DNA from: an uncultured virus (IMG/VR IMGVR_UViG_3300032326_001267)
Lineage: Duplodnaviria; Heunggongvirae; Uroviricota; Caudoviricetes
DNA length: 20,000 nt
Reading direction: 5' to 3' (one strand)
IMG/VR virus record: IMGVR_UViG_3300032326_001267
The position numbers were made by a program, and so were the translations under genes. This document shows positions 3,110 through 18,957 of this stretch, one piece after another. Below the pieces are notes generated by a model that did not search any database, was not told the origin of the DNA, and saw nothing but the letters and a program-made list of their open reading frames with translations. The stretch's first letter is position 1. The number at the start of each line of letters is the position of its first letter.

Positions 3110-3946
3110 TTATTTAATTATTGAAATATTATTTTTTATCTTTTCAAACACATCATGTGGTGATATGCTAGTGGTACATTCAAACATTCTTTTTGTGTTT
3201 TTATGATTTGGACACCAATTCCAATCATGTTTGTCAAACGGTTTTTCATTTAAACATCCGTGACAAACTGATTCATTGTCAACTCTTACTATATTGGTGG
3301 TAAACTCACACCATTTTTTTGTTACATTTGTAATCAACACAACCTTTTTCCCAACAGCATGAGCTAACCAACTTAATCCGTTTGAAGTGCCTATATGAAA
3401 TTCTGCGTGATTCATATAATGTGTAGACTCTAATAGTGATATACCAGTTTTATCAATTGCGCCCGCAGGAATTGTGTTATAACAGTCTTTTGTTCCGTAA
3501 CTACTGTACATATCAACACAGACTGCAGTTAAACCATAACGTTGTTTCAATAGATTCAAAAGTATGTTCCATCCTTTTTTTGCATTCCAATATCTTCCTT
3601 GATGAGTTGACTGGGTTGAAATAGTAAAGTATTTTTCTTTAATTGGTCTTTCTTTTATTACCGTAGCAACTTTAGCACAGGTTTCTTCAAATGGTAAACC
3701 CAACAAATCAGACGCATACTTTTCAAGAGGTTGGTCTAAGTTAACATGCAAAACTTTCAATTCATCATATTTGACAGGTTCATCAAAACTAATATTTGGA
3801 TAAACGGTCTTAAACAATTCAACATACTTTGAATTTATAATAAAATGTACGTTGTGATTTGTTAATTTCTGATACTTGTCAACTTGTCCAATCGACGCAA
3901 TTGTGTCACCCAAAGAACTTGTTGTTAACTCTATTTTAATTGTCAT
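3110..3946 (-). CDS. Aah/TibC-like (GT9-related, GT-B) heptosyltransferase lacking the N-terminal barrel domain
   Basis: SSLGDT, STQSTHQGRYW, HAEFHIGTSNGLSWLAHAVGKKVVLI and the four-Cys motif CHGC...WCP...FEC. Start moved from the TTG at 3967 to the ATG at 3946, which overlaps the upstream stop (ATGA). Confidence 0.8.
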   Translation of the reverse strand: MTIKIELTTSSLGDTIASIGQVDKYQKLTNHNVHFIINSKYVELFKTVYPNISFDEPVKYDELKVLHVNLDQPLEKYASDLLGLPFEETCAKVATVIKERPIKEKYFTISTQSTHQGRYWNAKKGWNILLNLLKQRYGLTAVCVDMYSSYGTKDCYNTIPAGAIDKTGISLLESTHYMNHAEFHIGTSNGLSWLAHAVGKKVVLITNVTKKWCEFTTNIVRVDNESVCHGCLNEKPFDKHDWNWCPNHKNTKRMFECTTSISPHDVFEKIKNNISIIK

Positions 3947-4881
3947 AAATTTACTTTTTTGAAACAAAAGTGATCTTCCTTTTCATTAAATAGTCTCAAC
4001 TTAAAATATGGATATTTTAATATTCCATCAAAAATTATATAACTAGTTGTACGAATTGGATTCATATTAATTGCGTAATCACCAAAAGTATGAAGCAACG
4101 TTTGTTCATAGTCATTTATACCATAAAGTTCTATAGTATATATGCCTGATGCATCCAAATCATAATGAATTGCGTCTCCATATTGAAACAGTAATGACAT
4201 CTTATTATTTTGTTCTCTTGTATAAGCATTCACCAATCTCTTATATTTTGTTGGTGTATCACTTCCTGCGTGATAAACAAACAATGTGTTTTCAGAAAGA
4301 AAGTGATAACGATATGGAATTATTTTTATATTGTTTGTTATAACTGGTTTGGTTATATCAAAATATTCCATGTTTATCAAATTGTCATCAGTTAATGTTT
4401 GTCTAATAAAATGGTCCATGACAGTTTGTTCATGGAAAAATTCATAATTATATTTCCCACTGTTATCCCAAATATAATTTAAAGTATCTATTGACCATTG
4501 AGAATTTTTCCATATCATGAATCCTGTACTAGTCATTGTGTACATCCTTCTATCAGATTCTGAAGGTGGATTCTTTGAAATAACTAAATCAATTCCGTCA
4601 TCAATAAAATCTTCAATTTTTATGTTTTTTAGAAATATTGCATCTGCGTCTATCCAAACAACATAATCATAGTTAGGTAAGTGTTTTTTTATTAATGGAA
4701 TCTTCAACCATGTATTTTGTCTATCAGACAACTCAGTTTCAGATATTTCACATACAAAACTATAATTGTGTCTATTTGCATATTTTAAGTTTACTTCTGC
4801 GCAAAATTTACCAAAATCACAATTACCATAATTGTTCCAAACTACTTTTTTTGTAAATGCGGTTAATATTAAAATATTCAT
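3943..4881 (-). CDS. GT34-like (GMA12/MNN10 galactosyl/mannosyltransferase family) glycosyltransferase with C-terminal extension
   Basis: YANRHNYSF, WLKIPLIKKHL, YDYVVWIDADAIF (DxD), TGFMIWKNSQWS, HEQT, VYHAG. Confidence 0.75.
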   Translation of the reverse strand: MNILILTAFTKKVVWNNYGNCDFGKFCAEVNLKYANRHNYSFVCEISETELSDRQNTWLKIPLIKKHLPNYDYVVWIDADAIFLKNIKIEDFIDDGIDLVISKNPPSESDRRMYTMTSTGFMIWKNSQWSIDTLNYIWDNSGKYNYEFFHEQTVMDHFIRQTLTDDNLINMEYFDITKPVITNNIKIIPYRYHFLSENTLFVYHAGSDTPTKYKRLVNAYTREQNNKMSLLFQYGDAIHYDLDASGIYTIELYGINDYEQTLLHTFGDYAINMNPIRTTSYIIFDGILKYPYFKLRLFNEKEDHFCFKKVNL

Positions 4882-4882
4882 T

Positions 4883-5977
4883 TTATTTATGATATAAAAT
4901 TTTTTCTATATTGTCAATTATCATTTTTGGTGTTATTGATTTAGAACATTCATATGCTCTATCTGTATTTTTAAGTTTTGGACACCACCACCAATCTGTT
5001 CTATCAAAATCATATCTATCATCACTCCAACATCCATGACACACATTTTTGTTTATTACTCTAAATGGAGTGAAAAATTCAGTTGTTTCTTTGCTCATTC
5101 CACTAACCAATATACATGGTTTGTTTAAACACCATGCTAACCAACTCATACCAGATGAAAGACCTATAAAAAATTCACTATTATATAACAAATTAATAGG
5201 TTCATTTAAATCAACTGAGTTACATAATTCAATGTCCAGATCAGGATCATTTATCAGATCCACAGATTCTTTTTGTAAAACTACTACCTTATATCCTTTA
5301 GAATTTAAGTATAAAACAATTTCTTTCCATCCGTTTGTATATTGCCATTCTTTACAAAAAGCGGTTGATTTTGTAGATATACAAACATATTTTTTATCAA
5401 TTTTTCTTGCTTTGTTTTGTACTTTTAATGGTGGAATAAGTTCTTCAAATTTTAACCCTAATATGTTTGCACAGATTTCTTGATTGTTTAATGACTTCCA
5501 TTTAACTTTATTACCATTTTTATTTTCAAAGCATCCTATTGGATATGCTGCGTACAAACCGTGAATAGAAGTACCGGGTTCAACAAAATTAATATCAGGA
5601 TAAATGTCTTTGAAAAGATAATTGAAAAAAGTTGAACAGTACATTATACAGTTGTGTTTTTTTCTAAATTCTTCTACATATGGAATCCATCCTAAATTGT
5701 CACCCAATGAATTGCTATCAAACCATATATAAACACGTTTACCACTTGGATTGTAATCAATCTCATCAACTATTAATTTTGATTTGAAATCAATAATTCT
5801 TATTTTATAATCAATGAAATAAGTATATGAACTCTTACACCACATATTGGATGTAATAACATCATCATACATGATTTTGTTTGTGTCTTTATCTATAAAC
5901 TGAACATAGTACTTATTATCTACATCAGATAGTATTTCACAAAAAGCTCCATCTACAAAATTTATATTATACTTCAT
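4883..5977 (-). CDS. Autotransporter O-heptosyltransferase-like protein (Aah/TibC family), full length
   Basis: N-terminal NFVDGAFCEI beta domain, GKRVYIWFDSNSLGDNLGWIPYVEEFRKKHNC, STAFCKEW, FFIGLSSGMSWLAW, TEFFTPFRVINKNVCHGCW...WCP...YECSKSITP (iron-finger cysteines). Confidence 0.88.
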   Translation of the reverse strand: MKYNINFVDGAFCEILSDVDNKYYVQFIDKDTNKIMYDDVITSNMWCKSSYTYFIDYKIRIIDFKSKLIVDEIDYNPSGKRVYIWFDSNSLGDNLGWIPYVEEFRKKHNCIMYCSTFFNYLFKDIYPDINFVEPGTSIHGLYAAYPIGCFENKNGNKVKWKSLNNQEICANILGLKFEELIPPLKVQNKARKIDKKYVCISTKSTAFCKEWQYTNGWKEIVLYLNSKGYKVVVLQKESVDLINDPDLDIELCNSVDLNEPINLLYNSEFFIGLSSGMSWLAWCLNKPCILVSGMSKETTEFFTPFRVINKNVCHGCWSDDRYDFDRTDWWWCPKLKNTDRAYECSKSITPKMIIDNIEKILYHK

Positions 5978-7148
5978 GTTTGATTGTAAAAATTATGTGT
6001 CTGAAATAAGAGTAATATGAAAAATAAGGAAAATAAGTAGATATATTTGACTTGAATTTATTCAATTTTTCAGTCAAAAACGCATCTCTTGATGAAATAT
6101 TAGGGTGTATATTTTCATTTAAATAGTATAAATTTATATGCATTTTTCTATTGAATATCTTTAATTGACTCAATAAACTACAAAAACTATCTTCACTTTC
6201 AAAATAGTTTAACACAATTGCATACTGTTCAAAACCACTGTATTTGTTAAAATCAATCTGTTTATCAATATATACGTTTTTAATTTTATTCTGTTGATCT
6301 ACACTTAATCTTGGAGATATAACGCATACGTTTTTGTTTAATTCATTTATGTCAAAGTATATCAGTGAATTAAATTCTTTATAACACTCATTATAATCAT
6401 ATATAGGTTCATATGAATTGGTTTTACATTTATCATATCCAACGTCAAAGTTTCCGTTAAAATTGTCCTTTACTGCAGAATGTGATTCAGAGTCTGTTCT
6501 ATAACTCCATCTGTACAAGTTTCTTGGAACATGTAACCACTTTCCAAATCCATTTGAGTACATTGTGTGATATGAATCTTCTGCGCATGCATCAAAGTCT
6601 TTTATCTCAAAATTCAATTCTTTTAAATTTTTAAAACATCTTCCGTGACCAAGACAATAATAATTCAAGTTATTCAAATAATCTACCGTTGGATGAAAGT
6701 GTTCTAGTTTTTTATGTAAAACGTCATCATTTCTGATAAAACCAATAGAATGAACTTGGTTATCAGATTCATTCATTTTTTTATAATCACATGATAAAAG
6801 TGCAACGTCTGGGTATTTTTTTGCTAAATGATTATAAACAGTCAATATGTTAAGATCTACTAAATCATCACTATCAACCAACAGAATGTATTCATAGTCA
6901 GATGGAATCATAGAATTTGGTTTCCAATACATTTGTTTTTTATATTGTTGTTCCAAATATACAATTCTGTCATTTCCTTTAATTTTGTTTAATAACAGTT
7001 GTTTGGTGTTATCAGGACTAAAATCATCAGTAACAAACCAAGTCCAATTAGAATAATTGATTGACATTAAGTTATCATAAATCTGATCTATATAACGCTC
7101 AGATTTATAAAATGATGTATAAATTGCAAACTTTAATTCTGTGTTCAT
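5967..7148 (-). CDS. GT2/GT-A glycosyltransferase with C-terminal extension
   Basis: FAIYTSFYKSERYI, WFVTDDFSPDNT, LLVDSDD, AEDS motifs. Confidence 0.85.
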   Translation of the reverse strand: MNTELKFAIYTSFYKSERYIDQIYDNLMSINYSNWTWFVTDDFSPDNTKQLLLNKIKGNDRIVYLEQQYKKQMYWKPNSMIPSDYEYILLVDSDDLVDLNILTVYNHLAKKYPDVALLSCDYKKMNESDNQVHSIGFIRNDDVLHKKLEHFHPTVDYLNNLNYYCLGHGRCFKNLKELNFEIKDFDACAEDSYHTMYSNGFGKWLHVPRNLYRWSYRTDSESHSAVKDNFNGNFDVGYDKCKTNSYEPIYDYNECYKEFNSLIYFDINELNKNVCVISPRLSVDQQNKIKNVYIDKQIDFNKYSGFEQYAIVLNYFESEDSFCSLLSQLKIFNRKMHINLYYLNENIHPNISSRDAFLTEKLNKFKSNISTYFPYFSYYSYFRHIIFTIKHEV

Positions 7149-8140
7149 AACAAATTTGTTTTAAATAAATAGGTAATTGTTTTAGTTACATCTTCTACTG
7201 AAGAATGACATTCAAATGTAGGTTTGTTTTCTAAACATTCAGTCAACGGTGGCACATTATTCATGGTACCCCATTCTCTAACCCCATATTTCATATTATT
7301 TGTACAAAACAGATCACATTTTCCTTTTACATATAGATACTTGTAATTCCGTGTTCCTTTTCTATACGGTGAAGAAAATCTTGGGTCTTTTGCACTTCCT
7401 AATTGAAGTATAAATGTATCAGTAGTACCAGCAAGATGTAACAAACCAGAATCAAGAGTAATAAATAATTTTGCATTGTTCAATAAATGCCATGTATCAC
7501 TCAAATCTAATTGGTCTGCTAAATCTAATCCGTATAAATTATTGAACTTTTTTATGTGTTTTTCTGTTACTAAATTTACCTCTTGTTGAACAGTTGTTTT
7601 GCCTGTTATCACAGTAAAAATGTTATTTTTTGCCAAAAAGTCAACAAGTAGTTGCCAGTTTTCATATTTCCAAGTTCTGTTGGACCAGTTAGTGGACGGG
7701 TGAATAACTACATAGTCTTTTGGTAATTGTACGGTATTTGAATATTTATTTGGAAAAAAGTCACAATGCAATTCATCATCAAACAATTGAAATCCCAAAT
7801 CATTTGCATGAATTTGACGCAAATCTACTAATTGAAATTTTCTTTCTACACCAAATTGATTTTTTTGACCCGGTAAAACGTAAGTTTGAAAATACTCAAT
7901 TTCATTATTTATTAGATGATTCCAATCTTTATTTTTGAATTTTTCATTGAATTCTTCATAACTATACAGTTTGTCAATATAAGGATTGTTAATCCAAATT
8001 CTTTTTGTTTCACTAGGAACAACCACATTTATTTTTTTGTTGTACACAAAAAACATTTTACGTAATGATGGTGTTGCACATAGAGTGTCTCCAAGAGTTC
8101 TACAGTTGACTGATAAATAAACATCTCTAGGTTGGATCAT
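7145..8140 (-). CDS. GT9-family (ADP-heptose heptosyltransferase-like) glycosyltransferase
   Basis: TLGDTLCATPSLR, NNPYID, YVVIHPSTNWSNRTW, AKLFITLDSGLLHLAGTT; four Cys near the C-terminus (CDLFC...C...FEC). Confidence 0.85.
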   Translation of the reverse strand: MIQPRDVYLSVNCRTLGDTLCATPSLRKMFFVYNKKINVVVPSETKRIWINNPYIDKLYSYEEFNEKFKNKDWNHLINNEIEYFQTYVLPGQKNQFGVERKFQLVDLRQIHANDLGFQLFDDELHCDFFPNKYSNTVQLPKDYVVIHPSTNWSNRTWKYENWQLLVDFLAKNNIFTVITGKTTVQQEVNLVTEKHIKKFNNLYGLDLADQLDLSDTWHLLNNAKLFITLDSGLLHLAGTTDTFILQLGSAKDPRFSSPYRKGTRNYKYLYVKGKCDLFCTNNMKYGVREWGTMNNVPPLTECLENKPTFECHSSVEDVTKTITYLFKTNLL

Positions 8141-8219
8141 AACAGATATTACATATAAAAATTTAAATTAAAAAAATCAATTTATCCCAAATAAAAATAC
8201 GTATAATCATAGGTTACAG

Positions 8220-8792
8220 ATGAAAAATTTATACCACATAGTTACTAGATTTACGAGAAGTGATATCAAATGGTTAGATAATTGTTATAAAAGTATTATA
8301 AATAATGATATAAACTATAAGTGGTATATAATTGGCACTGAAGATTATGTTGACGTTTCTAAATATAAAAACACAACATATTTAAAGTTTCCTAATAAAC
8401 CCAATTGGAAAAATCTATGCAACTACTATTTGGATGTAGTACCAGATGAAGGTCAGTGGTTTTTCATATTAGATGATGATAATTTATTGCACCCAAACTT
8501 TAATAGGTTAGATGACAAAATACATTCTAATACTAAATTGGTAATAATGAGCCAACTGTATGAACCAGATAGAGTGAGAGTTGCATGTGAACAAAACATA
8601 ATGGTCCAAAAAATTGATATGGCACAGTTTTGTATCAAAAGAGAGATAATTAATGATTTGAGATTTTGGGAAATATATAGAGGTGATGGTTATTTTATTA
8701 TGGAACTATACATAAGATGTAGAGAGTATGGAATACAATCACAAATATTTACTGAAGTTTTTTCCTACTATAACGCACAACATTGGATATGA
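8220..8792 (+). CDS. Small GT-A fold (GT2-like) glycosyltransferase
   Basis: YHIVTRFTR start strand, WFFILDDDNLLHP (DxD), IDMAQF, GDGYFI, SYYN. Confidence 0.7.
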   Translation: MKNLYHIVTRFTRSDIKWLDNCYKSIINNDINYKWYIIGTEDYVDVSKYKNTTYLKFPNKPNWKNLCNYYLDVVPDEGQWFFILDDDNLLHPNFNRLDDKIHSNTKLVIMSQLYEPDRVRVACEQNIMVQKIDMAQFCIKREIINDLRFWEIYRGDGYFIMELYIRCREYGIQSQIFTEVFSYYNAQHWI

Positions 8793-9487
8793 TAAATATT
8801 GATAGTATAGATATATTAAAACTCAAAGAACAGTTCAAAAATCACAATAGAATTATCATTAATAACTTTTTATTGAATGATTATGCTGAATCTTTATATG
8901 AATTTTATAATGAAAAAATGCCATCTAACTGGTGGCATGCGTCTTCTTATCCTTCTTTTACTAGAGGAGAAGCACATGAATTTATACCAGTAATAGATGA
9001 AAACTATCACACAATACAAATAAATAAGTCCTATTCAAATAAATGTTTGAATGATAACATCTACTCCTATTTCTTTTACAGAACAATGCCTCATGCTGAA
9101 GGATGTAATTGTACACACTGTTCTATCCACAACTTTTTATGTACGCCAAAAATGGCTAACATATTGAATGAAATCACAGATTTAAACATAGAAAAACCCA
9201 CAACAATATTTGCAAATAAATATACATCAGACTGTTTCTTGGCAACTCATACAGATGATGGAAACGGAAGACTGGCATTTGTTCTTCATTTAACAAAGAA
9301 CTGGAATCCATGTTGGGGTGGTCTTTACATGGATCATACAGACCCAAATAACATCAAAACAGTAATTCCAAGTTTTAATAAAATGGTAATGTTTAAAGTA
9401 GGAAATAATCAAACTCCACATAGTGTTAGCTGTGTAACTAACAATTTAACTAGAAAAAGAATATCAGTAACAGGATGGTTTAATTAA
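8789..9487 (+). CDS. 2OG-Fe(II) dioxygenase, prolyl-hydroxylase-like (Tpa1/OGFOD1/EGLN-like)
   Basis: HxD...H triad (FLATHTD ... TPHSVS), RxS 2OG-binding motif (RISVTGWF), LAFVLHLTKNWNPCWGGL and PSFNKMVMF. ATG at 8789 overlaps the upstream TGA. Confidence 0.88.
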   Translation: MINIDSIDILKLKEQFKNHNRIIINNFLLNDYAESLYEFYNEKMPSNWWHASSYPSFTRGEAHEFIPVIDENYHTIQINKSYSNKCLNDNIYSYFFYRTMPHAEGCNCTHCSIHNFLCTPKMANILNEITDLNIEKPTTIFANKYTSDCFLATHTDDGNGRLAFVLHLTKNWNPCWGGLYMDHTDPNNIKTVIPSFNKMVMFKVGNNQTPHSVSCVTNNLTRKRISVTGWFN

Positions 9488-9490: not shown

Positions 9491-10570
9491 ATGAAAAATT
9501 TTTGTATATTAACATTGACACATGAATCAAAAAATAGACCATCTTACTTAAAAGAAACGGTTGATTCATTTTTGAATAATACTGAGTATGATGAAATAAT
9601 TGATTGGTTTATTTATATAAACAAATCAAATGAAGAATTTATTGTTACTTGTAATGAATTAATAGAAGAATATAAGGATAAAGTTGATTTCAAAATAGTA
9701 CATTCCAACGTAAATAATGGTGTAGGATATGGAATAAATAGACTGAATGAACTTGGTGCAGATTACACTTACAGTCTTTTCTTAGAAGGTGATTGGAAAT
9801 GTATGGCACCAGAAATAAGCGGTCAATCAAAAAGCTGGTTAAAAACAAGTTTAAAATTATTAGAGGAAAATAAAACTGTAGATGCTGTATTCTTAAGAAG
9901 ATATATAAATGATTATGAAAGTAGATCCACGGGAATATTAGGATATATGCATACAGAGGATTCTGTAGAACTTGAACTAGATGGATTGAAATATTTTATT
10001 GCTCCTATAGGTTCTTATACAAACAATCCGTTGATAAGAAGAAATAGTTCATTTTATAAGAAAAAAGTATTTCCACTTAAAGAATTTTTTGATGAAAACG
10101 GAAATCCTACAGAATTGAAGATAGACAATGAAATGTATCCAAACTGGGGAGCAGCAGAAATGGAAGCAGCGGCAGTATTACATTGCGGTCTTAATAATAA
10201 ATCAAATACAATGACGTATGCCTTTATCATGTGGGGCACTCATTGTCACATTGATCATCTAGGTGATTATGATCATGAAAATCAGTGTTTTTATGAAAAA
10301 GAAAACACAAAAGGTTGTAAAAAATATAAAAACGGACAATCTACATGTAAATTTGGATATTACAATATATCCCCTCATTTTTGTACATTGTGTAGTGCAG
10401 ATACAAAACCAATTAGTTTAGTACATCTATTTTCAATTGAATCTCAGATGTTGGATACATTAGAAATAAACAAAAATACATGGTCAGTTGATGAAAAAGT
10501 TGACTTTGTTAAAAATTATATAAAAAATGCTGAATTAAATGCGGAGAATTTTACTAAGTATTTTATATGA
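9491..10570 (+). CDS. Putative GT-A fold glycosyltransferase with Cys-rich C-terminal region
   Basis: RPSYLKETVDSF, NNGVGYGIN, YSLFLEGDW (ExD variant), YTNNP; C-terminal C-x9-C...CxxC. Confidence 0.6.
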   Translation: MKNFCILTLTHESKNRPSYLKETVDSFLNNTEYDEIIDWFIYINKSNEEFIVTCNELIEEYKDKVDFKIVHSNVNNGVGYGINRLNELGADYTYSLFLEGDWKCMAPEISGQSKSWLKTSLKLLEENKTVDAVFLRRYINDYESRSTGILGYMHTEDSVELELDGLKYFIAPIGSYTNNPLIRRNSSFYKKKVFPLKEFFDENGNPTELKIDNEMYPNWGAAEMEAAAVLHCGLNNKSNTMTYAFIMWGTHCHIDHLGDYDHENQCFYEKENTKGCKKYKNGQSTCKFGYYNISPHFCTLCSADTKPISLVHLFSIESQMLDTLEINKNTWSVDEKVDFVKNYIKNAELNAENFTKYFI

Positions 10571-11247
10571 TATCTTTTATAATTCCAACAATATGGAAAG
10601 CAGAAGAAATATATAAATCAATAGAACAATTTAAACGGATCAAAAATAAAAATGTTGAACTGATTATAGTTGACAATACCCACTCCAATTTTTATGATAG
10701 TGATCCAAGAATCACAGTTGTCAAATGTTCAAAAAATATATTTGTAAACCCAGCTTGGAACATTGGCGCAAGATTGGCCAGAAACAAATATATTTGTTTG
10801 TTAAATGATGATATATACTTTAATTATATCTCACTAATAAACTCTTTTCCTCTATTCATTGAATCATATCCCAATTTAGGATTGATAGGATTTAATTATC
10901 ATTTATTAAAAATTGACGGTGAATTAAATAATGATAATGATAAATTAGAATTATTTGATACTACCGGGACGGTACCATATGCATATGGATGTTGTTTGTT
11001 TCTAAAAAAAGATGATTATATACAAATTGATGAATCATACAAAATTTTCTATGGGGACACTCTTTTAATTGTATTTCTTATTGACAAACAAAAAAAGAGA
11101 ATGTATTATATAGACAATATAAAATGTATTGGAAGAATAAGTGTAAGTAGTGATCCTCATTCTGAGGAAATGAATGATGAATCTCCTCTTTTTTCTGTAC
11201 AATATCATAAATTAATAAAATATGGACCAGACTATTTCAAAAAATAG
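10567..11247 (+). CDS. GT2 glycosyltransferase
   Basis: MISFIIPTIW, ELIIVDN, NIFVNPAWNIGARLARNKYICLLNDDI, YGD. Confidence 0.88.
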   Translation: MISFIIPTIWKAEEIYKSIEQFKRIKNKNVELIIVDNTHSNFYDSDPRITVVKCSKNIFVNPAWNIGARLARNKYICLLNDDIYFNYISLINSFPLFIESYPNLGLIGFNYHLLKIDGELNNDNDKLELFDTTGTVPYAYGCCLFLKKDDYIQIDESYKIFYGDTLLIVFLIDKQKKRMYYIDNIKCIGRISVSSDPHSEEMNDESPLFSVQYHKLIKYGPDYFKK

Positions 11248-12463
11248 CAAAATAACAGTTTGTATATTTGGAAAACATATAGATGCGTTATTTTCAGAAA
11301 AAAATGCTCCTGAATATGAGGAGAATACATTTGAACTTTTAAATTATGAAAATGATCATCAATTAAATGATATCATAAAAAAGTATGATCCTCACGTTTA
11401 TATTACATTTGGTGATTGGCAACAATACAAATTGTTGTGTAATGCTCCATATGAAATAAGAAAAAGATGGATGAACTATCCGTCTGATGTAAATTTGGAT
11501 CAATTAGGAGTAGACGCATTAAATTGTTATATAAGTTCCACTTTTTGTTACAATACAAGTGATGGTGGACATCCATTAGTATCAGTGTTTACACCAGCAT
11601 ACAGATCTGCACAAAGAATATTTAGACCACTACAATCATTATTAGATCAAACTTACAAAAATTGGGAATGGGTTATCATAGATGATTCTGATGATAATGA
11701 TGTAACTTTTAACTTATTAAAAGAAATAAGTGAAATTGATCACAGAATAAAAGTATTCAAAAATGCAAGAAAATCTGGAAGTATAGGTGAATTAAAAAGA
11801 TGGGCAGCAGGTCTTTGTTCTGGTGAATATCTATGTGAATTGGACCATGATGATGAACTAACATCAAAATGTTTAGAATATGTAGTAAAAACATTTCAAA
11901 AATATCCTGAAGCAGGATTTGCATACACTGATTCAGCTGAAATATATGAAGATGATAAATCCAATGTCAAATATGAAGCGGGATTTTCACTTGGATATGG
12001 TAGTTACAGACAAGAAATTTACAACGGTAAAACATATGAAGTTGTAAACGGTCCAAAAATAAATCCAAAAACAATCAGACACATTGTTGGCGTTCCAAAT
12101 CACATAAGATCCTGGAGAAGAGATACCTATTTTAAAGTAAATGGTCATAACCCACATTTACATGTATGCGATGATTATGAATTGATTATAAAAACATTCC
12201 TCACCACAAAAATTGCATACATACCAAAATTAGGATATATTCAATACAGAAACAAAGACGGTAATACAACCGTTTCCAGAAATAAAGAAATTCAAAGATT
12301 AACCAGAATAATCAAAAATTCATATGACCATCTAATTCATAAAAAATTTGTGGAATTAGAAATCAATGACTTTTTATATGATGAAAAGACACAATCTTCA
12401 AATATAGATGGACCAAATCCACTATTTGAACAACATGTGTGTATCATCTCTGATGTTAATTAA
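11222..12463 (+). CDS. GT2 glycosyltransferase with N-terminal extension
   Basis: PLVSVFTPAY, SLLDQTYKNWEWVIIDDS, GEYLCELDHDDEL, CDDYEL. Confidence 0.9.
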   Translation: MDQTISKNSKITVCIFGKHIDALFSEKNAPEYEENTFELLNYENDHQLNDIIKKYDPHVYITFGDWQQYKLLCNAPYEIRKRWMNYPSDVNLDQLGVDALNCYISSTFCYNTSDGGHPLVSVFTPAYRSAQRIFRPLQSLLDQTYKNWEWVIIDDSDDNDVTFNLLKEISEIDHRIKVFKNARKSGSIGELKRWAAGLCSGEYLCELDHDDELTSKCLEYVVKTFQKYPEAGFAYTDSAEIYEDDKSNVKYEAGFSLGYGSYRQEIYNGKTYEVVNGPKINPKTIRHIVGVPNHIRSWRRDTYFKVNGHNPHLHVCDDYELIIKTFLTTKIAYIPKLGYIQYRNKDGNTTVSRNKEIQRLTRIIKNSYDHLIHKKFVELEINDFLYDEKTQSSNIDGPNPLFEQHVCIISDVN

Positions 12464-15400
12464 TTATTCTTTAATACTTTAATCTCTTCCTTTAAAGTAT
12501 CAACCTCAGTCTTTAATACTTCAATGTCTTCAATTGCTTTCTTCAAAGCACTCCACATTGTTGGTACAAAGCTCCACGTATCAAGACTTTGATATATAGG
12601 ATCTCCATTTTCATCAACTGCATTTTTTTCTCCAAATACAGCTTGTTTCAATCCACCATCTTGTACTTCATGTGCAATAAATCCAGATTCAACTTTCTGT
12701 AATGGATCATTTATACGTATGAACGTTTTTGGTTGAATGTTCTTAACAATTCCCCATCCATCATTATAATTTTGAATGTTGGTTTTTAATCTGTAGTCAG
12801 ATTGTGAACCTTGTGGACCAGCCGGACCTTGACGACCCTGTGGACCTTGTGGTCCAGCCACGTTACTAGGTGAACCACTTGATCCGCTTGTACCATTGAC
12901 ACCATTGACACCATTGACACCATTAACACCTGCTGGTCCTTGTGCGCCTTGTCTGCCTTGTGGACCTATGTTACCTGCTGGACCTTGTGGACCTGCTACG
13001 TTGCTTGAAACACCGCTTGATCCACTTGTACCGTTAACACCATTAACACCATTAACACCATTAACACCATTAACACCATTAACACCACTTGATCCACTTG
13101 TACCGTTAACACCATTAACACCATTAACACCATTAACACCATTAACACCACTTGATCCACTTGTACCGTTAACACCATTAACACCATTGTTGCCGTTAAC
13201 GCCTGCTGGTCCTTGTGCGCCTTGACGACCTTGCGGACCTGTGTTACCTGCTGGTCCTTGTGGACCAGCCACGTTACTAGGTGATCCGCTTGATCCGCTT
13301 GTACCACTGTTACCATTAACACCACTTGATCCGCTTGTACCATTGTTACCATTGATGCCGTTAATACCATTAACACCTGCTGGTCCTTGTGCGCCTTGTC
13401 TGCCTTGTGGACCTATGTTACCTGCCGGTCCTTGTGGACCGGCCACATTGCTTGGAGCACCACTTGATCCGCTTGTACCACTTGATCCACTTGTACCGTT
13501 GTTTCCGTTAATACCGTTGATGCCGTTTACACCATTTGTACCACTACTTCCACTTGTACCAGATTCACCCATTGGTCCAAATACACAGTTTGTTATACCA
13601 TTTGTGGATGATACTGTATAAAAACTTGAATCTAGATACAAAGCACTACCAATTGCTCTTGCTACTGTTCTTTGTACAACACCGTCTTTCCAATATCTAA
13701 TGTTTATACCATCATATGTAATTGATAATTGTGTAACTGATGTATAAGTGCCATAAGAACCTATGTCAGTTCCTGATTCATAAATTCTTAACCCGCCACC
13801 GGATTGAATATACCAACAATAATCAATACTAGCAAAACTTGCATCAAGTGTTGGATCTGTATTTAATCCAACCATTGTATACGTACCAGTATTAATTGCT
13901 TGGAATGCCATGTAACACCCTCTGGCATAACCTTCAGTAGAATATACTTGACCGTCCCACGTAGCGTTATTTCCTGTTGCTTTAACGAATGTATTTGAAT
14001 TTGTTCCGTAAGTTACACCACCACTAAAATTTGGAGTCCAATTACCTACACCTCTTGTTCCACTTGAACCAGATGTACCGCCTGGACCTATTGGACCTTG
14101 TGGTCCAGCTACGTTACTAGGTGATCCGCTTGATCCACTTGTTCCGCTTGATCCGCTTGTACCATTGTTACCATTGATGCCGTTGATGCCGTTAACACCC
14201 GCTGGGCCTTGTGCGCCTTGACGACCTTGCGGACCTGTGTTGCCTGCTGGTCCTTGTGGACCAGCTACGTTGCTTGGTGATCCGCTTGATCCACTTGTTC
14301 CGCTTGATCCGCTTGTACCATTGTTACCATTGATGCCGTTGATGCCATTAACACCTGCTGGACCTTGTGCGCCTTGACGACCTTGTGGACCTGTGTTACC
14401 TGCTGGTCCTTGCGGTCCAGCCACGTTACTTGGAGCACCACTACTTCCACTTGTTCCGCTTGATCCACTTGTTCCACCTGGACCTATTGGTCCTTGCGGT
14501 CCAGCCACGTTACTTGGAGCACCACTACTTCCACTTGTTCCGCTTGATCCGCTTGTACCTGATGAACCTGATGTACCTGCTGCGGTTGCAGTAGATTTAT
14601 AAACAATACCGTTAGTGTCAATTGTTAAAAATGTACCAGTTGAAAGAGTAGCTAGACCGTCAATTTCAACTGAACCAGAAACATGCAATCTAGCTGCTGG
14701 TCTTGATGTACCAATACCAACACTGCTGCCTGTTATAACAAATGCGTTTGAATTGAATGTACCACCAACCACTCTGTTGTCACTGAAGACTTCAAGAATT
14801 GGTAAACCTGATATATCATTTACACTGAATAGTGAACCGCTTAAACTGTCATCTACAGCAAATAGTGATCCACTGGTACCTTCTACTCTAAATACAATTG
14901 ATCCAGCAGCAAGTGAACCACTACTGTTTACATTCAATTTAGCATTTGGATTTGTTGTGCCTATACCTACGTTACCACCGTATGGTTGTAAATGAATTTG
15001 ACCATTATTTGCACCTGATGATATTGTTTGCCATTGAAATGTGGCTGTTGAGAGTCTTCTTATATAAGACATATCAGTGTTACTTGCACCAAATGAAAGT
15101 GCAACTCCACTGCTTAATACTGTTAACTGTGCATTCCCTCCAGTTGTAAATTGGCTTGAATTATTTATAACAACATAACCATCTGCGGTAAATCTAATTG
15201 TTTCAGCCCAAGCACTAGGAAAATATCTGCCTATACCCATTGCAGATCCACCAACTCTTGTGATTGCTAAATCTCTACTATTTGCAGTGTCTCCTAAATA
15301 TAAAGCAGTACCAGTTCCAACTGCACCTGTACTTCCAAATGTTAGAAGATTACCTGATATTGTTATTTTTTCTCCAGCTGCAGTTGTACCAATACCAATA

Positions 15401-18400
15401 TTACCAGATGAGTTAATTCGCATTGCTTCTACAATTGCACTGGTTGATCTAGTAGTTCCTAATGCTAAATATCCATTCCAAGTACCTCCAGATTCTTTTG
15501 CTCCTTGAATTTTTCCAAACACATATGGGGTTGTACCTTGAGCGTTTTCTCCACCTAGTGCAATCGACCCGCCCATATCAGTTGTACTAACATTAGTAGT
15601 AAACACATTGATGTTACCATACGCATCAAAAGTTCTATTTGCAGAGTGGACTGCAAATGATGTTAATGGGTTTGTCGTTCCTATCCCAACGTTACCACCG
15701 TTTGGGTTTAATAATAATGGATAATTAGCGGCTAAACTGGTTTCATCAGTAGATTGCAACCAAGCTCCAGCACCACCAGACCTCATACCAATATCTAATA
15801 CTGCATTATCAGTGGTATTACTTAATCTTACCATACCACCTTGAGCAGTACCTGAAGTAGCAGGATTACCTACAACACCATCTAAATGAAATTTCTGAAC
15901 TGGATTAGTTGTACCTACACCTACATTGCCTGACGTTGGTACCAACAATAAGTTTCTGTTACCGCTTACTTGTAAAAATGTTTGAAATGAATTATTTGCA
16001 GATCCATTTCCTGTTGCCATGTATAAATTATCACCGTTATGACCAATTGCCCAGCTGTCACCTAAGCCAGCATTACCGCCAATTGCAGACGTTACTCCCC
16101 AACCACTTCCATCTGCAATTGCACCGGCAACTACTGCATTTGAATAAGCGTCTGGATCAATTGATGTATTGTTTGCCAAAATACTTGCGCCTACAACATG
16201 CAATCTTTGAGCTGCAATTATTGTACCAATACCAATACCACTTCCACTATCATAAAATTGAGTAGATGTATTACCAATTGTAGTTGCACTTGTAAACTTA
16301 ACTATATTGTTGGTAGTACCAGATACACTAACTGATGTGCCTGAACTACCACTTGTTCCGCTTGAACCACTAGTTCCACTTGAACCAGAAGTTCCTGAAC
16401 TACCACTAGTTCCACTTGAACCGGATGTACCTGCTGGACCTTGTGGTCCAGCCACGTTGCTTGGAGCACCACTAGATCCACTAGTACCGGAAGAACCGCT
16501 TGTTCCACCTGGACCTATTGGACCTTGTGGTCCGGCCACATTGCTTGGAGCACCACTGCTTCCACTGGTGCCACTTGAACCACTTGTACCGCCTGGACCT
16601 ATTGGACCTTGTGGACCAGCTACGTTGCTTGGAGCACCACTAGATCCACTAGTACCGGAAGAACCAGAAGTTCCTGAACTACCACTGGTTCCGCTTGAAC
16701 CAGATGTACCTGAACTACCGCTAGTACCACTTGACCCGCTTGTTCCGTTTGTTCCGCTTGAACCACTAGTACCTGATGAACCTGATGTACCTGATGAACC
16801 TGATGTACCTGCTGCGGTTGCAGTTGATTTATATACTACACCAGTAGTGTTATCTACAGTTAGATAATAACCCGTAGCATTTGTACTTAGACCGTCAATT
16901 TCAACTGAACCAGAAACATGCAATCTAGCTGCTGGTCTTGATGTACCAATACCAACTGAACTACCTGTTAATACCAATACATTTGAACCGTATGTACCTG
17001 CAACTATAGTATTATCACTAAATACTTCCAAAACAGGTATACCAGAAATTGTATTTACACTGAACAATGAACCGCTTAAATTATCAGTTACTTCAAATAA
17101 TGTACCACTAGAACCATCTGTTTTAAATACACTTAAATTGCTTCCACTACCATATACATTCAATTTACTAGTTGGTGTTATAGTGCCTATACCAACATTG
17201 TTGGATGAATCTATTGTGATTGATGGAGCCGCAGATCCATAACCCAAATGAATTTTACCTGTAGAATTTTGTTTAATTACTGCGTCACCAGCAACGGTAC
17301 CGGTAAAAAATTGATTTGCACCACCTACAACTCCAAATTCAAGTTCACTTGCAGTTCTACCAAGATATTGATATGCATATTGTCCGCTATTATTACTTAA
17401 TGTTGACAATCCAGGACTATTACCAGCAATAATTTGTAATTTTGAAGTTGGTACTGTTGTACCAATACCAACATTTGCACCTGAAAATACAAAATAACCT
17501 CCAGAACCACCAAGTTGATTGGCTCTGAAAACCATTGTGTTATAAGAATTTAAATAAGCAGTACTACTATTATCATATAAACTAAATATTTGATTGGTAG
17601 CTGTACCATAAAAATTCAAGAAATATCTATCTGTACCAGCAGTTACATTTGATATAAAAGCACCGTCAGTTGCAGTAATTGAACCTGATACATATAATTT
17701 GGTAGTACCACTTGTTGTGCCTATACCTAAATTACCATTACCATCAATACGCATTCTTTCACTCAATGAAGCTAAACTTCCAACAGCAACAGTTTGTGTT
17801 GGACCAGTATACCAACGATGAGTGCCTCCATCTTGGATATAAGCAGATCTTACAATACTTATTCCTGTTGAACTAAAAAATGAAGCAGCTGATGCAGTTG
17901 AAGGTGACACGCCATAACCTAAAAATGGACCACCGCTACTTTGTTCAGATCCAAATACAGTCAAACTTCCGTTATTATAATAGCCTTGAATTATTGTGTT
18001 TCCGCTTGTTGATGTAGTTGCACCAGCAGTAATTGAACCCAATACATGTAATTTATCAATTGGAACTGCTGTACCTATACCTAAATTACCACCATCTAAT
18101 AGAACCATTTTATTTAATCTACCACCACCACCAACTGATGTAACAGTACCAAAGTATAAATTTTGACCACTAGCCCAATCAAAGTAATTTATACCAGTAG
18201 TTCTGTATAATCTTAATGCCGCATTATCACCTTCAAGTTGCAATTCACCTGCACTTATTCTAGTTGATCCGCTTACGTTTAATATAGTAGCAGGACTTGC
18301 AGTTCCTATACCAACACTTCCATTATCAAGATTAACTATTGATCCAGTGGTTATTGTTGTTGTGCTATTAAATTTAGCAACATAGTTTGTCAATCCTGAT

Positions 18401-18957
18401 ACAGTAACACTTGTACCAGATGAACCACTTGTACCTGAACTGCCGCTAGTTCCACTGCTTCCAGACGTTCCGCTTGAACCGCTGGTACCATTATTACCTG
18501 CCGGACCTTGTGGACCGGCCACGTTACTTGGAGCACCACTACTACCACTTGTACCACTTGAACCAGAAGTTCCGCTTGATCCACTTGTACCACTACTTCC
18601 ACTGGTACCACTTGACCCACTTGTACCAGCAGTACCAGATGAACCACTAGTTCCGCTTGATCCACTTGTACCACCTGGACCTTGTGGTCCTTGAGGACCG
18701 GCAACATTGCTTGGAGCACCACTTGAACCGGAAGTACCACTTGATCCGCTTGTGCCTGAACTACCACTAGTACCAGATGAACCAGAAGTGCCTGATGCGC
18801 CACTTATAGTTTTTGAAACAATACCACTTGCATCAACGGTCAAAAAGGTTGTATTGCTTGCGCTTGATGACAAGTTCAAAATCTGCAACGGTTGTGTTGA
18901 TGCAGATGAACTTATTATTAGACTACCTGTTACTGTGGTTGACTGTAAAATTGCCAT
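12460..18957 (-). CDS. Large tail-fibre-like protein with Ser/Thr-rich collagen-like blocks, GNVGIGT beta repeats and a C-terminal S74 intramolecular chaperone
   Basis: 2165-aa ORF with four Gly-X-Y blocks (GTSGSS, GPQGPA, GVN/GIN) and many G[NS][VLI]GIGT repeats. The C-terminus SDYRLKTNI...GFIAHEVQ...coiled coil matches Peptidase_S74. Confidence 0.88.
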   Translation of the reverse strand: MAILQSTTVTGSLIISSSASTQPLQILNLSSSASNTTFLTVDASGIVSKTISGASGTSGSSGTSGSSGTSGSSGTSGSSGAPSNVAGPQGPQGPGGTSGSSGTSGSSGTAGTSGSSGTSGSSGTSGSSGTSGSSGTSGSSGAPSNVAGPQGPAGNNGTSGSSGTSGSSGTSGSSGTSGSSGTSVTVSGLTNYVAKFNSTTTITTGSIVNLDNGSVGIGTASPATILNVSGSTRISAGELQLEGDNAALRLYRTTGINYFDWASGQNLYFGTVTSVGGGGRLNKMVLLDGGNLGIGTAVPIDKLHVLGSITAGATTSTSGNTIIQGYYNNGSLTVFGSEQSSGGPFLGYGVSPSTASAASFFSSTGISIVRSAYIQDGGTHRWYTGPTQTVAVGSLASLSERMRIDGNGNLGIGTTSGTTKLYVSGSITATDGAFISNVTAGTDRYFLNFYGTATNQIFSLYDNSSTAYLNSYNTMVFRANQLGGSGGYFVFSGANVGIGTTVPTSKLQIIAGNSPGLSTLSNNSGQYAYQYLGRTASELEFGVVGGANQFFTGTVAGDAVIKQNSTGKIHLGYGSAAPSITIDSSNNVGIGTITPTSKLNVYGSGSNLSVFKTDGSSGTLFEVTDNLSGSLFSVNTISGIPVLEVFSDNTIVAGTYGSNVLVLTGSSVGIGTSRPAARLHVSGSVEIDGLSTNATGYYLTVDNTTGVVYKSTATAAGTSGSSGTSGSSGTSGSSGTNGTSGSSGTSGSSGTSGSSGTSGSSGTSGSSGTSGSSGAPSNVAGPQGPIGPGGTSGSSGTSGSSGAPSNVAGPQGPIGPGGTSGSSGTSGSSGAPSNVAGPQGPAGTSGSSGTSGSSGTSGSSGTSGSSGTSGSSGTSVSVSGTTNNIVKFTSATTIGNTSTQFYDSGSGIGIGTIIAAQRLHVVGASILANNTSIDPDAYSNAVVAGAIADGSGWGVTSAIGGNAGLGDSWAIGHNGDNLYMATGNGSANNSFQTFLQVSGNRNLLLVPTSGNVGVGTTNPVQKFHLDGVVGNPATSGTAQGGMVRLSNTTDNAVLDIGMRSGGAGAWLQSTDETSLAANYPLLLNPNGGNVGIGTTNPLTSFAVHSANRTFDAYGNINVFTTNVSTTDMGGSIALGGENAQGTTPYVFGKIQGAKESGGTWNGYLALGTTRSTSAIVEAMRINSSGNIGIGTTAAGEKITISGNLLTFGSTGAVGTGTALYLGDTANSRDLAITRVGGSAMGIGRYFPSAWAETIRFTADGYVVINNSSQFTTGGNAQLTVLSSGVALSFGASNTDMSYIRRLSTATFQWQTISSGANNGQIHLQPYGGNVGIGTTNPNAKLNVNSSGSLAAGSIVFRVEGTSGSLFAVDDSLSGSLFSVNDISGLPILEVFSDNRVVGGTFNSNAFVITGSSVGIGTSRPAARLHVSGSVEIDGLATLSTGTFLTIDTNGIVYKSTATAAGTSGSSGTSGSSGTSGSSGAPSNVAGPQGPIGPGGTSGSSGTSGSSGAPSNVAGPQGPAGNTGPQGRQGAQGPAGVNGINGINGNNGTSGSSGTSGSSGSPSNVAGPQGPAGNTGPQGRQGAQGPAGVNGINGINGNNGTSGSSGTSGSSGSPSNVAGPQGPIGPGGTSGSSGTRGVGNWTPNFSGGVTYGTNSNTFVKATGNNATWDGQVYSTEGYARGCYMAFQAINTGTYTMVGLNTDPTLDASFASIDYCWYIQSGGGLRIYESGTDIGSYGTYTSVTQLSITYDGINIRYWKDGVVQRTVARAIGSALYLDSSFYTVSSTNGITNCVFGPMGESGTSGSSGTNGVNGINGINGNNGTSGSSGTSGSSGAPSNVAGPQGPAGNIGPQGRQGAQGPAGVNGINGINGNNGTSGSSGVNGNSGTSGSSGSPSNVAGPQGPAGNTGPQGRQGAQGPAGVNGNNGVNGVNGTSGSSGVNGVNGVNGVNGVNGTSGSSGVNGVNGVNGVNGVNGVNGTSGSSGVSSNVAGPQGPAGNIGPQGRQGAQGPAGVNGVNGVNGVNGTSGSSGSPSNVAGPQGPQGRQGPAGPQGSQSDYRLKTNIQNYNDGWGIVKNIQPKTFIRINDPLQKVESGFIAHEVQDGGLKQAVFGEKNAVDENGDPIYQSLDTWSFVPTMWSALKKAIEDIEVLKTEVDTLKEEIKVLKNN
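12802..13578 (-). repeat. Collagen-like block 4 (GPQ/GVN/GTSGSS)
   Basis: Gly-X-Y triplets interrupted by SNVA; includes perfect 9-nt tandem arrays. Confidence 0.9.
13034..13186. repeat. Perfect tandem arrays (ttaacacca)x6, x5 and x2 separated by an identical 18-mer
   Basis: Arrays at 13034-13087, 13106-13150 and 13169-13186, with spacer cttgatccacttgtaccg; encodes (GVN)n-GTSGSS. Confidence 0.95.
14056..14577 (-). repeat. Collagen-like block 3
   Basis: GTSGSS / G[AS]PSNVAGPQGP / GPQGRQGAQGPAGVNGINGIN units. Confidence 0.9.
16333..16809 (-). repeat. Collagen-like block 2
   Basis: (GTSGSS)n with three GAPSNVAGPQGP units. Confidence 0.9.
18409..18801 (-). repeat. Collagen-like block 1
   Basis: (GTSGSS)n with two GAPSNVAGPQGP units. 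Confidence 0.9.

Follow-up and report, generated by a model that had tools for sequence, protein, structure and literature searches.

What do ten modification enzymes do for a phage that encodes them immediately beside a giant collagen-like fibre? The question is raised by a stretch of 20,000 nucleotides from an uncultured virus (IMG/VR record IMGVR_UViG_3300032326_001267), analysed over its whole length and called the window below. Ten enzyme genes lie contiguously at positions 3110-12463, split into a minus-strand arm of five genes (3110-8140) and a plus-strand arm of five (8220-12463). The last plus-strand gene (11222-12463) is convergent with the fibre open reading frame (ORF) at 12460-18957 on the minus strand, with a 4-nt overlap at the fibre 3′ end. 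The original prediction described ten modification genes in a row directly beside the fibre gene; the ORFs were found exactly at the coordinates it gave, and the observation of an enzyme cluster beside a collagen fibre is confirmed. On balance, family assignments and comparison with relatives favour the view that with this cluster the phage encodes the machinery to mature its own collagen-like tail fibre. The genes concerned are the following (GT, glycosyltransferase; 2OG, 2-oxoglutarate).

3110..3967, minus strand: short Aah/TibC-like paralogue, 285 aa, without the N-terminal beta-barrel (TIGR04414, 210.1 bits, profile positions 84-372)
3943..4881, minus strand: GT34 or nucleotide-diphospho-sugar transferase-like (Nucleotid_trans) GT-A enzyme, 312 aa (PF05637, 47.7 bits; PF03407, 30.1 bits)
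4883..5977, minus strand: full-length Aah/TibC-family protein O-glycosyltransferase, 364 aa, candidate priming enzyme (TIGR04414, 307.8 bits)
5967..7148, minus strand: GT2, 393 aa (PF00535, 38.6 bits)
7145..8140, minus strand: GT9 (heptosyltransferase-family), 331 aa (PF01075, 60.2 bits)
8141..8219: AT-rich divergent spacer of 79 bp between the five-gene arms
8220..8792, plus strand: small probable GT-A fold transferase, 190 aa (no Pfam, PHROG or NCBIfam match; invariant ILDDDN motif)
8783..9487, plus strand: 2OG-Fe(II) oxygenase of the prolyl-hydroxylase kind, 234 aa (PF13661, 65.2 bits; PF13640, 48.3 bits)
9491..10570, plus strand: probable divergent GT2-like transferase, 359 aa (PF00535, 18.1 bits, below cut-off)
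10567..11247, plus strand: GT2, 226 aa (PF00535, 38 bits)
11222..12463, plus strand: GT2 with N-terminal extension, 413 aa (PF00535, 70.4 bits)
12460..18957, minus strand: collagen-like tail fibre, 2165 aa, the proposed substrate (PF01391, PF13884)

The enzymes most telling for this question are the two relatives of Aah and TibC. NCBIfam model TIGR04414, which describes Aah/TibC protein O-heptosyltransferases, has a curated equivalog cut-off of 200 bits; both window proteins exceed it, as do their orthologues (311 and 204.7 bits) in the syntenic relative L001 (L-numbers are labels of the compared loci or contigs). The 364-aa protein matches PDB TibC with E 7e-63 over residues 7-359, and the 285-aa paralogue matches TibC 4rap with E 1e-36. 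An AlphaFold model of the larger protein, built on a 22-sequence alignment (pLDDT 90.5), has eight strands in residues 1-86 and aligns with TibC (4RAP) at a TM score of 0.90, N-terminal barrel included; the second-best folds are lipopolysaccharide (LPS) heptosyltransferases at TM 0.4-0.55. The TibC protomer fold, a flattened N-terminal beta-barrel joined to a GT-B-like catalytic domain, was found in the 364-aa model and not in the 285-aa paralogue. In the available portion of the TibC paper (PMC4358343), Asp-110 is given as the catalytic base, Thr-226 and Lys-230 as beta-phosphate contacts, Trp-305 as the contact to heptose O4, and Cys-339, 342, 358 and 370 as an iron finger. Alignment showed the equivalents of all eight residues to be kept in both paralogues. 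Among 22 environmental relatives, the Asp, Lys, Trp and four Cys are invariant, and the Thr is present in 21. At position 300 there is Ser, as in AAH. That portion also reports that deleting the N-terminal barrel abolishes TibC activity, and that TibC hyperglycosylates Ser, not Thr, in repetitive substrates, at the sites N-S-G-G and T-S-A-A. By profile, fold and catalytic residues, both window proteins are members of the BAHT (bacterial autotransporter heptosyltransferase) fold and catalytic family, the 285-aa copy being barrel-less. The short form is also conserved in L001 and L009-L011. In the L010 record (G020) it lies at 2251-3084 and carries one in-frame TGA, possibly a broken gene or a sequencing error.

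The proposed substrate contains 225 G-X-Y triplets in 17 runs of at least four triplets each, spread over four collagen regions (residues 53-183, 717-875, 1461-1638 and 1794-2052), and PF01391 recognises 13 collagen stretches in it (E 1e-73). The dozens of GTSGSS units ascribed earlier to the 2165-aa protein were counted as 52, against a mean of 0.03 and a maximum of 1 in 1000 composition-preserving shuffles. Its collagen runs (675 residues) include 56 Pro and 0 Lys, and twelve [AS][PS]SNVAGPQGP interruptions occur in the protein. Two beta-type regions of ~530-585 residues each, carrying N[VIL]G[IV]GT motifs, lie between collagen regions, and a globular insert (residues ~1644-1797) is similar to Cellulophaga phage structural proteins. 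At the C-terminal end, residues 2053-2100 match PF13884, the Peptidase_S74 chaperone of endosialidase (28.5 bits against a cut-off of 22), and the C-terminus shares 40-44% identity with the ends of cyanophage tail fibres. Phage tail-fibre and structural proteins also gave partial matches. Family and context thus point to a tail fibre or whisker-like protein that is presumably incorporated into the virion. The G+C content of the window is ~29% and rises to 35-46% across the collagen-coding stretch.

Does the pairing of enzyme and fibre recur in other phages? More than 1000 relatives of the 364-aa enzyme were found in a metagenome protein collection at E 1e-10 or better. In viral contigs, too, genes of the TibC-like kind are common: at least 572 of 599 candidate stretches were confirmed by a profile scan of IMG/VR. 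The best 80, together with L001-L005 and the window, made a forward set of 86 sources. A locus comprised flanks of up to 10 kb, and a collagen ORF was required to have at least 20 triplets and an S+T content of at least 25%. Upon clustering at 70% identity, a Ser/Thr-rich collagen ORF was present in the locus for 34 of 44 TibC-like clusters and lay at a gap of 1 kb or less in 14 of 44; clustering at 95% identity gave 38 of 57 and 15 of 57, respectively. The control set consisted of 80 loci anchored on the tail-tube gene, 34 of which were under 10 kb and were dropped for the collagen count. A collagen ORF was found in 8 of the 46 control loci of at least 10 kb, to be compared with 34/44 (Fisher p = 1.4e-8), and a TibC-like gene in none of the 80. 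The collagen ORFs neighbouring TibC-like genes are dominated by GTS and GSS triplets, with up to 955 triplets in 3195 aa (L015); in some (L021, L025, L045) the triplets are almost wholly GSS/GTS. For the reverse test, a collagen block from the fibre served as query; of 672 stretches 88 could be confirmed, yielding 72 loci of which 71 were analysed (L014, already in the forward set, was left out). A TibC-like gene was found in 17 of the 71, many loci being cut by contig ends. When split by repeat content, the figures were 17 of 56 for loci with at least ten G[ST]SG[ST]S units versus 0 of 15 for loci with fewer.

The association was also seen at the scale of whole records. TIGR04414 scored above its cut-off in seven of ten whole records whose fibre locus had no TibC-like gene: all four records that are at least 90% complete were positive, and the three misses are 15-33% complete. 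Among seven tail-tube-anchored control records, one (55% complete) had a TibC-like gene, another (70% complete) had the GTSGSS-type DNA pattern at its very end, and the two complete ones had neither. Gene and pattern were likewise both absent from the related complete genomes of immuto, RM378 and LR756508 and both present in Mel-JY01 and the 735-kb LR756501 (1024 pattern matches in the latter). Over complete and near-complete genomes, a TibC-like gene was found in 6 of 6 that are pattern-positive versus 1 of 6 that are pattern-negative (Fisher p = 0.015); since the numbers are small and the lineages related, this result is an indication, not proof. Altogether, the link between enzyme and fibre receives strong comparative support, and the co-occurrence and neighbourhood that the original prediction proposed as a check were found across phage loci (34/44 vs 8/46 controls) as well as genome-wide (6/6 vs 1/6).

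Some records deserve separate mention. In LR756501.1, 1022 minus-strand matches to a two-unit GTSGSS-type DNA pattern begin at ~103.5 kb, and the TibC-like gene lies at 580165-581256; the matches indicate that this genome carries very large GTS-type collagen genes. Microcystis phage Mel-JY01 (PP395634.1; L003) has, at 2-3052 on the plus strand, an unannotated frame of at least 1016 aa that runs off the record start and encodes a GTS/GSS collagen with 202 triplets and 30 GTSGSS units; of this frame the deposited annotation covers just the final 534 bases, and it calls two ORFs on the opposite strand instead. The TibC-like domain of this phage lies within a protein annotated 'methyltransferase FkbM', the fusion being encoded at 4750-8430 of the record. 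In the IMG/VR contig L002, the TibC-like match (10001-11041) is a frame with four in-frame TAG codons, and reading TAG as sense lifts the longest ORF of the locus from 317 to 1414 codons, so that L002 is probably a TAG-recoded phage. With TAG read as sense, no collagen ORF was found near its TibC-like gene.

The way in which the enzymes are encoded differs between lineages. In most lineages other than that of the window, the TibC-like domain forms the C-terminal part of fusions of 700-1600 aa encoded next to the fibre, its partners being GT4 (Glycos_transf_1), an FkbM or class-I methyltransferase, GT25, GT32 or DUF6165. To judge from their domain content, these fusions are an assembly-line architecture without membrane parts. 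In the window lineage (L001, L006-L011) the enzymes are separate genes and the set is variable. L001 (83% identity) has retained the cluster, with an additional GT25 beside the fibre, L009-L011 are without the GT34-like gene and one GT2, and GT25 domains were seen in L001, L041 and L130. The closest tail-tube relatives (86-90% identity, L157-L161) have other fibres and a GT4-like gene at the cluster position. Such variation is the pattern expected of a glycan-building set that would diversify along with the fibre. The contigs L158, L160 and L161 end inside or just past a fibre gene upstream of the deoxyribonucleotidase gene, which suggests that assemblies break at the repetitive or hypervariable fibre region. 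Enzymes of other kinds accompany collagen fibres of the GTS/GSS or GXT type in three loci: a sulfotransferase directly after the collagen ORF (L129, 13786-14604), an arylsulfotransferase domain fused to a lectin-like domain at the same place (L126, 10819-13443), and FkbM and class-I methyltransferases ~4 kb upstream (L119, 4325-5603).

The hydroxylase that the original prediction placed in the cluster proved to be a 2OG-Fe(II) oxygenase by PF13661 and PF13640. Its closest solved relatives, OGFOD1 (E 1.7e-10) and Tpa1, are protein prolyl hydroxylases, and alignment with OGFOD1 matched the HxD motif (H-T-D), the distal His and the Arg (R-x-S). A hidden Markov model (HMM), built from the five proteins of the window lineage plus the two P4H-like proteins of 199 aa that Pfam had identified in L130 and L090, detected additional copies, each next to a collagen ORF, in L113, L135, the five loci of the L054 group and L156. 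In all, P4H-like genes were seen at the fibre in the window lineage, the L054 group, L090, L113, L130, L135 and L156, against none of the 80 control loci. At least three locus groups besides that of the window (the L054 group, L113, L135) combine a TibC-like enzyme, a 2OG oxygenase and a GTS/GSS fibre; in the L054 group the oxygenase gene separates the TibC fusion from the collagen ORF, and in L135 it abuts the TibC-like gene. Much proline in a GTS/GSS fibre was seen only in the window lineage, where 20-29% of triplets have Pro at X, and in L130 (13%), whose Pro-containing fibre is directly followed by a 2OG oxygenase and a GT4-GT25-OGFOD2-like fusion. In these two cases the Pro content fits prolyl hydroxylation. 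In L156 (3051-6108, 15034-18088), which is without a TibC-like enzyme, a GPQ-rich collagen with Pro at X in 70% of triplets is flanked by a P4H-like 2OG oxygenase, a PF11397 'GlcNAc' transferase, a GT4 and a GT2. PF11397 is presumably the family of the Skp1 hydroxyproline GlcNAc-transferase, and the L156 set looks like a set for hydroxyproline glycosylation.

The remaining transferases are of mixed standing. Where nine glycosyltransferases had been claimed, seven are firm (two Aah/TibC, GT34, GT9 and three GT2 enzymes above cut-offs) and two, of 190 and 359 aa, are only probable. The 190-aa ORF gave a model of low confidence (pLDDT 61.6) that matches GT-A glycosyltransferases at TM about 0.55-0.63; because of that low confidence, its assignment to GT-A stays at probable. 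Its protein-atlas neighbours, like those of the 359-aa ORF, are GT2-like viral clusters (leads only); for the latter the nearest cluster scores 0.99 and has GT2 on 18% of its members. The 359-aa ORF is conserved in L001, L006, L007 and L011. Homologues of the GT9 (E 1e-44 to 1e-85) stand beside TibC-like genes in L015, the L056 group, L071/73, L087, L131, L136 and L154, and a homologue of the 413-aa GT2 (E 7e-36) adjoins collagen ORFs in L155. A PHROG scan of the ten enzyme genes returned no family except a weak match of the GtrB-like phrog_22739 to the soluble GT2 domain of 11222-12463.

Around the cluster, the virion-structural neighbourhood described earlier was found in the form of a tail-tube gene and a second S74 fibre:

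1-687, minus strand: cytidylyltransferase-like gene (weak generic and NMNAT-like matches)
779-1270, minus strand: tail tube (PF06841, phrog_4542)
19005..20000, minus strand: second fibre gene, of which the C-terminal 331 aa lie inside the window (S74 chaperone, PF13884, 43.4 bits)

The second fibre matches 27 PHROG families, at least 22 of them tail-category among the best 25 of the 27. Downstream of the minus-strand enzyme arm the order is a small coiled-coil ORF, the deoxyribonucleotidase, the nucleotidyltransferase, the tail tube and the cytidylyltransferase-like gene. The last was considered as a heptose-1-phosphate adenylyltransferase and the idea was dropped as unsupported, the matches being weak and generic or NMNAT-like, with no solved relative. 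The deoxyribonucleotidase-like and nucleotidyltransferase-like genes (1338-2653) are separate and overlapping here and are fused into one ORF of 386-387 aa in L165 (7371-8534), L167 (8781-9941) and L175 (6687-7850). Relatives have, between the nucleotidyltransferase and tail-tube genes, a gene of ~500 aa with DUF7487 and a Mom-family domain that the window is without (L001, 13265-14773, minus strand; L157, 4058-5623; L158, 4416-5921; L160, 5519-7027). The tail-tube protein shares 64% identity with its counterpart in Microcystis phage Mel-JY01, 57% with that in Flavobacterium phage immuto and 40% with that in Rhodothermus phage RM378; owing to these identities the fragment is assigned to a distant (far-T4-like) T4-like myovirus, and its host probably is low-GC. 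A search of the whole window for near-identical DNA in the phage collection gave no match, and scans of the window for tRNAs and for Rfam families were equally negative. Regarding transcription, the exact 10-mer TATATTTATA occurs three times on the minus strand (692-701, 1300-1309, 18967-18976), each copy preceding a minus-strand gene by a few to ~40 bases (cytidylyltransferase-like, tail tube and fibre, respectively), and may be a late-promoter element. No enrichment was seen for the T4 late-promoter motif TATAAATA, with 6 matches where 4.3 were expected; sigma-70 and terminator scans of the window stayed at background level, and no convincing promoter consensus was seen in the 79-bp spacer.

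We postulate the following course of events, each step of which, including the identity of the sugar, the acceptor residues and the action of the oxygenase, is inferred from family, context and comparison. Late in infection, the 364-aa TibC-like enzyme would O-glycosylate serines of the (GTS/GSS)n triplets in the cytoplasm, perhaps joined in this priming step by the barrel-less paralogue (3110-3967). The donor would be a nucleotide sugar; heptose, suggested by the enzyme family and the adjacent GT9, is a candidate. The GT9, the GT34-like enzyme and the five GT2/GT-A enzymes would then extend and diversify the glycan, and the OGFOD1/P4H-like oxygenase would hydroxylate fibre residues, most plausibly Pro in the GPQ, GPA and GPI triplets of this lineage. 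The C-terminal S74 chaperone would subsequently drive trimerisation of the fibre. The resulting glycan coat may stabilise and shield a triple helix almost free of hydroxyproline, and variation of the enzyme set may vary the fibre surface.

A number of findings weigh against this scheme, either as a whole or in its parts. Ten of the 44 TibC lineages have no collagen ORF nearby. Conversely, a Pfam glycosyltransferase was found within 10 kb in none of the ten TibC-less GTS/GSS fibre loci scanned (one has two methyltransferases and one a sulfotransferase), and the rule that each GTS/GSS fibre adjoins a glycosyltransferase was rejected on that count. In L165 and L175, GTS/GSS fibres lie directly beside nucleotide-metabolism genes with no adjacent glycosyltransferase. 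The huge phage LR756504 has a TibC-like gene and no GTSGSS-type pattern, and its enzyme may have a different substrate. The compared lineages are not phylogenetically independent and their ORFs were called mechanically. Moreover, TATATTTATA is absent upstream of the two enzyme arms; because it precedes the fibre but not these arms, co-regulation of enzymes and fibre is unsupported. The acceptor documented for BAHT enzymes in the portion of PMC4358343 at hand is Ser only, not Thr. According to the same source, TibC Arg-286 contacts adenine N1, the proposed basis of ADP specificity, and a beta-hairpin thumb (Phe-265/Val-266) builds the dodecamer ring. The Arg-286 position is Pro in the 364-aa protein and Ser in the 285-aa one, with Arg in only 4 of the 22 relatives. 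The thumb is gapped in the HMMER alignment with TibC and mostly deleted in the 22-sequence alignment, and where it is expected the 364-aa model has a short helix and no hairpin (residues 233-251). Given the replaced Arg and the deleted thumb, donor nucleotide-sugar and oligomer state may differ from those of TibC. Heptose as the transferred sugar is uncertain. GmhA, sedoheptulose-7-phosphate isomerase, scored above its cut-off in one of five TibC-bearing phage records; that record is LR756504.1, with GmhA at 430182-430640, 27 kb from the TibC-like gene (457157-458236). Finally, the L054 group, L113 and L135 carry the 2OG gene beside fibres with 0-3% Pro; the rule equating fibre proline with the presence of an oxygenase was rejected, and the oxygenase appears to track fibre proline only in part. 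Hence the claim that the enzymes act on the Ser/Thr-rich fibre stands as regards neighbourhood and co-occurrence; it is qualified by the uncertain heptose, the partial link between oxygenase and proline, and the GTS/GSS fibres that have no glycosyltransferase.

Could the enzymes instead remodel the host surface? By this account the glycosyltransferases would act on LPS, O-antigen or capsule, blocking superinfection or changing the receptor, and would adjoin the fibre through a shared hypervariable host-interaction region. GT9, GT2 and GT25 are indeed best known from LPS and polysaccharide synthesis. Glycosyltransferase clusters in tail-fibre hypervariable regions of pelagimyophages and cyanophages are read, in the available parts of PMC7029224 and PMC12801897, as host LPS modification or DNA protection; fibres and glycosyltransferases may share such a region for other reasons, as the available part of PMC7029224 allows, and the cluster position behaves as a variable island in L157-L161, which carry other genes there. 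The published readings and the possible sharing of such a region also count against action on the fibre. However, Aah/TibC is a family of cytoplasmic protein-Ser glycosyltransferases and both window copies score above its equivalog cut-off. The GT9 matches LPS heptosyltransferase models only weakly and far below all cut-offs. The membrane components of Gtr-type or O-antigen systems were not seen: a crude hydropathy scan found a transmembrane-like segment in none of the ten genes (maximal 19-residue Kyte-Doolittle mean at most 1.07), and no family of lipid-carrier priming enzyme, flippase, polymerase or ligase was matched in the window in Pfam and NCBIfam. In addition, the association is specific to Ser/Thr-rich collagen loci (the 17/56 versus 0/15 split) and holds genome-wide even where the genes are 4-16 kb or more apart. 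We therefore regard remodelling of the host surface as unlikely.

Still less probable is that the enzymes glycosylate another phage or host protein, be it the non-collagen, beta-structured parts of the fibre, the second fibre or a different Ser-rich virion protein. TibC acts on Ser in beta-helix loops (PMC4358343, available portion), and some 1300 residues of the fibre are non-collagen and carry N[VIL]G[IV]GT and V-S-G-S-like motifs repeatedly. The collagen ORF and the TibC fusion of Mel-JY01 are separated by a Ser-rich 'structural protein' that is not collagenous, and several collagen-less TibC lineages have large fibre-like ORFs with 19-23% S+T next door. Yet what the lineages have in common is the G[ST]S collagen block, most clearly in the almost pure GSS/GTS triplets of L021, L025 and L045. 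Hypermodification of phage DNA by the oxygenase and glycosyltransferases, in the manner of 5-methylcytosine to 5-hydroxymethylcytosine to its glycosylated form, is highly improbable: phage clusters of dioxygenase and glycosyltransferase do modify DNA, sometimes with heptose-sized sugars, and can be near structural genes (bioRxiv 10.1101/2023.12.21.572611, available part), which tells against the fibre as target, and nucleotide-metabolism genes (deoxyribonucleotidase, nucleotidyltransferase) flank the cluster, with a Mom-like gene nearby in L001, but no cytosine C5-methyltransferase or TET/JBP-type (5mYOX) dioxygenase family was matched among the 17 window ORFs in Pfam and NCBIfam, the nearest solved relatives of the oxygenase are protein prolyl hydroxylases, and TibC-family enzymes are protein-specific. 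The original prediction had named DNA, LPS or capsule as the targets that would overturn it; all are rated below the fibre on account of the protein specificity of the TibC family, the association with Ser/Thr-rich collagen, and the lack of family matches to membrane or lipid-carrier parts and to C5-methyltransferase or TET-type enzymes in the window.

How would a system of this kind, maturing the phage's own collagen-like fibre, relate to those already known? Glycosyltransferases encoded beside structural genes in mycobacteriophages are said, in work ascribed to Freeman and colleagues (2023, Cell Host Microbe), to modify virion proteins at the C-termini of capsid and tail-tube subunits. The location of the phage genes is similar here; the proposed target, a collagen fibre, and the use of BAHT-type enzymes and a hydroxylase are different. 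Mimivirus makes collagen-like fibril proteins and the lysyl hydroxylase/glucosyltransferase L230, and in animal collagen LH3 and ColGalT1 (GT25) act on lysine. The combination of a 2OG hydroxylase and glycosyltransferases for a collagen-like protein is shared with the phage loci, including GT25 in L001, L041 and L130; unlike those systems, in which Lys is the acceptor, the collagen runs here have no Lys. BclA of Bacillus anthracis is an exosporium collagen-like (GXT)n protein that is O-glycosylated on the hydroxy-amino acid of the triplet with rhamnose/anthrose chemistry. It resembles the case proposed here in being a glycosylated collagen-like protein, but it is bacterial rather than viral and its transferases are unrelated. 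The closest enzymological parallel is with the BAHT enzymes that act on AIDA-I and TibA in E. coli: the curated profile family, the fold, the catalytic Asp, the Lys, Thr and Trp donor contacts and the Cys4 iron finger are the same, and a soluble enzyme is encoded beside a long, repetitive, Ser-rich fibrous substrate that is hyperglycosylated before assembly, as far as the available description of that system goes and as predicted here. In contrast, the phage neighbour is a collagen-like tail fibre and not an autotransporter beta-helix (no autotransporter family matched in the window in Pfam and NCBIfam), neither the adenine-contact Arg nor the dodecamer thumb is conserved, one paralogue is without the N-terminal barrel, and most phage lineages fuse the domain to GT4, GT25 or a methyltransferase.

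The nearest prior idea is the prediction of Iyer et al. 2010 (PMC2938197), in the available part of which bacterial collagen-like or tail-collar proteins are proposed to be hydroxylated by co-encoded 2OG dioxygenases and then sulfated. It has in common with the present case a co-encoded 2OG dioxygenase and a second enzyme acting on the new hydroxyl; sulfotransferases by collagen fibres occur also in L129 and L126. It differs, within that part of the source, in being bacterial, in relying on beta-hydroxylase/PhyH enzymes and sulfotransferases, and in including no TibC-like enzymes, GTS/GSS fibres or phages. Full-text searches, with subscription-journal papers and supplements outside their scope, found no literature linking TibC-like enzymes to phage collagen fibres. 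As far as can be seen, comparative support for such a link is gathered here for the first time, and the system would represent virus-encoded glycosylation of a virion protein by a BAHT-family enzyme on a new class of substrate.

A wider proposition, which we put forward tentatively and hold as possible rather than probable, is that in many uncultured phages of aquatic habitats, ranging from T4-like myoviruses up to huge phages of 735 kb, the tail fibres consist of proline-free (Gly-Thr-Ser/Gly-Ser-Ser)n collagen whose serines are hyperglycosylated by phage BAHT-type enzymes, often assembly-line fusions with GT4, GT25 or methyltransferase, with a prolyl hydroxylase added in some lineages. This would be convergent with collagen maturation in animals and mimivirus, glycans replacing hydroxyproline as the stabiliser, and a large part of the 'LPS genes' annotated in hypervariable regions of phages would be virion-glycosylation machinery. 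Microcystis phage Mel-JY01, which is cultured and has both a TibC-like fusion and a GTS/GSS collagen ORF, offers a testable model. If the reading is correct, virion glycosylation would extend from a few actinophages to a large and diverse set of environmental phages, and the TibC/Aah family, until now associated with the autotransporter adhesins of pathogens, would gain a second and probably far more numerous class of substrates. It would also explain the stability of Pro-poor, Ser/Thr-rich collagen fibres and alter how glycosyltransferase clusters of phage host-recognition islands, for which host LPS modification is now the routine annotation, are read.

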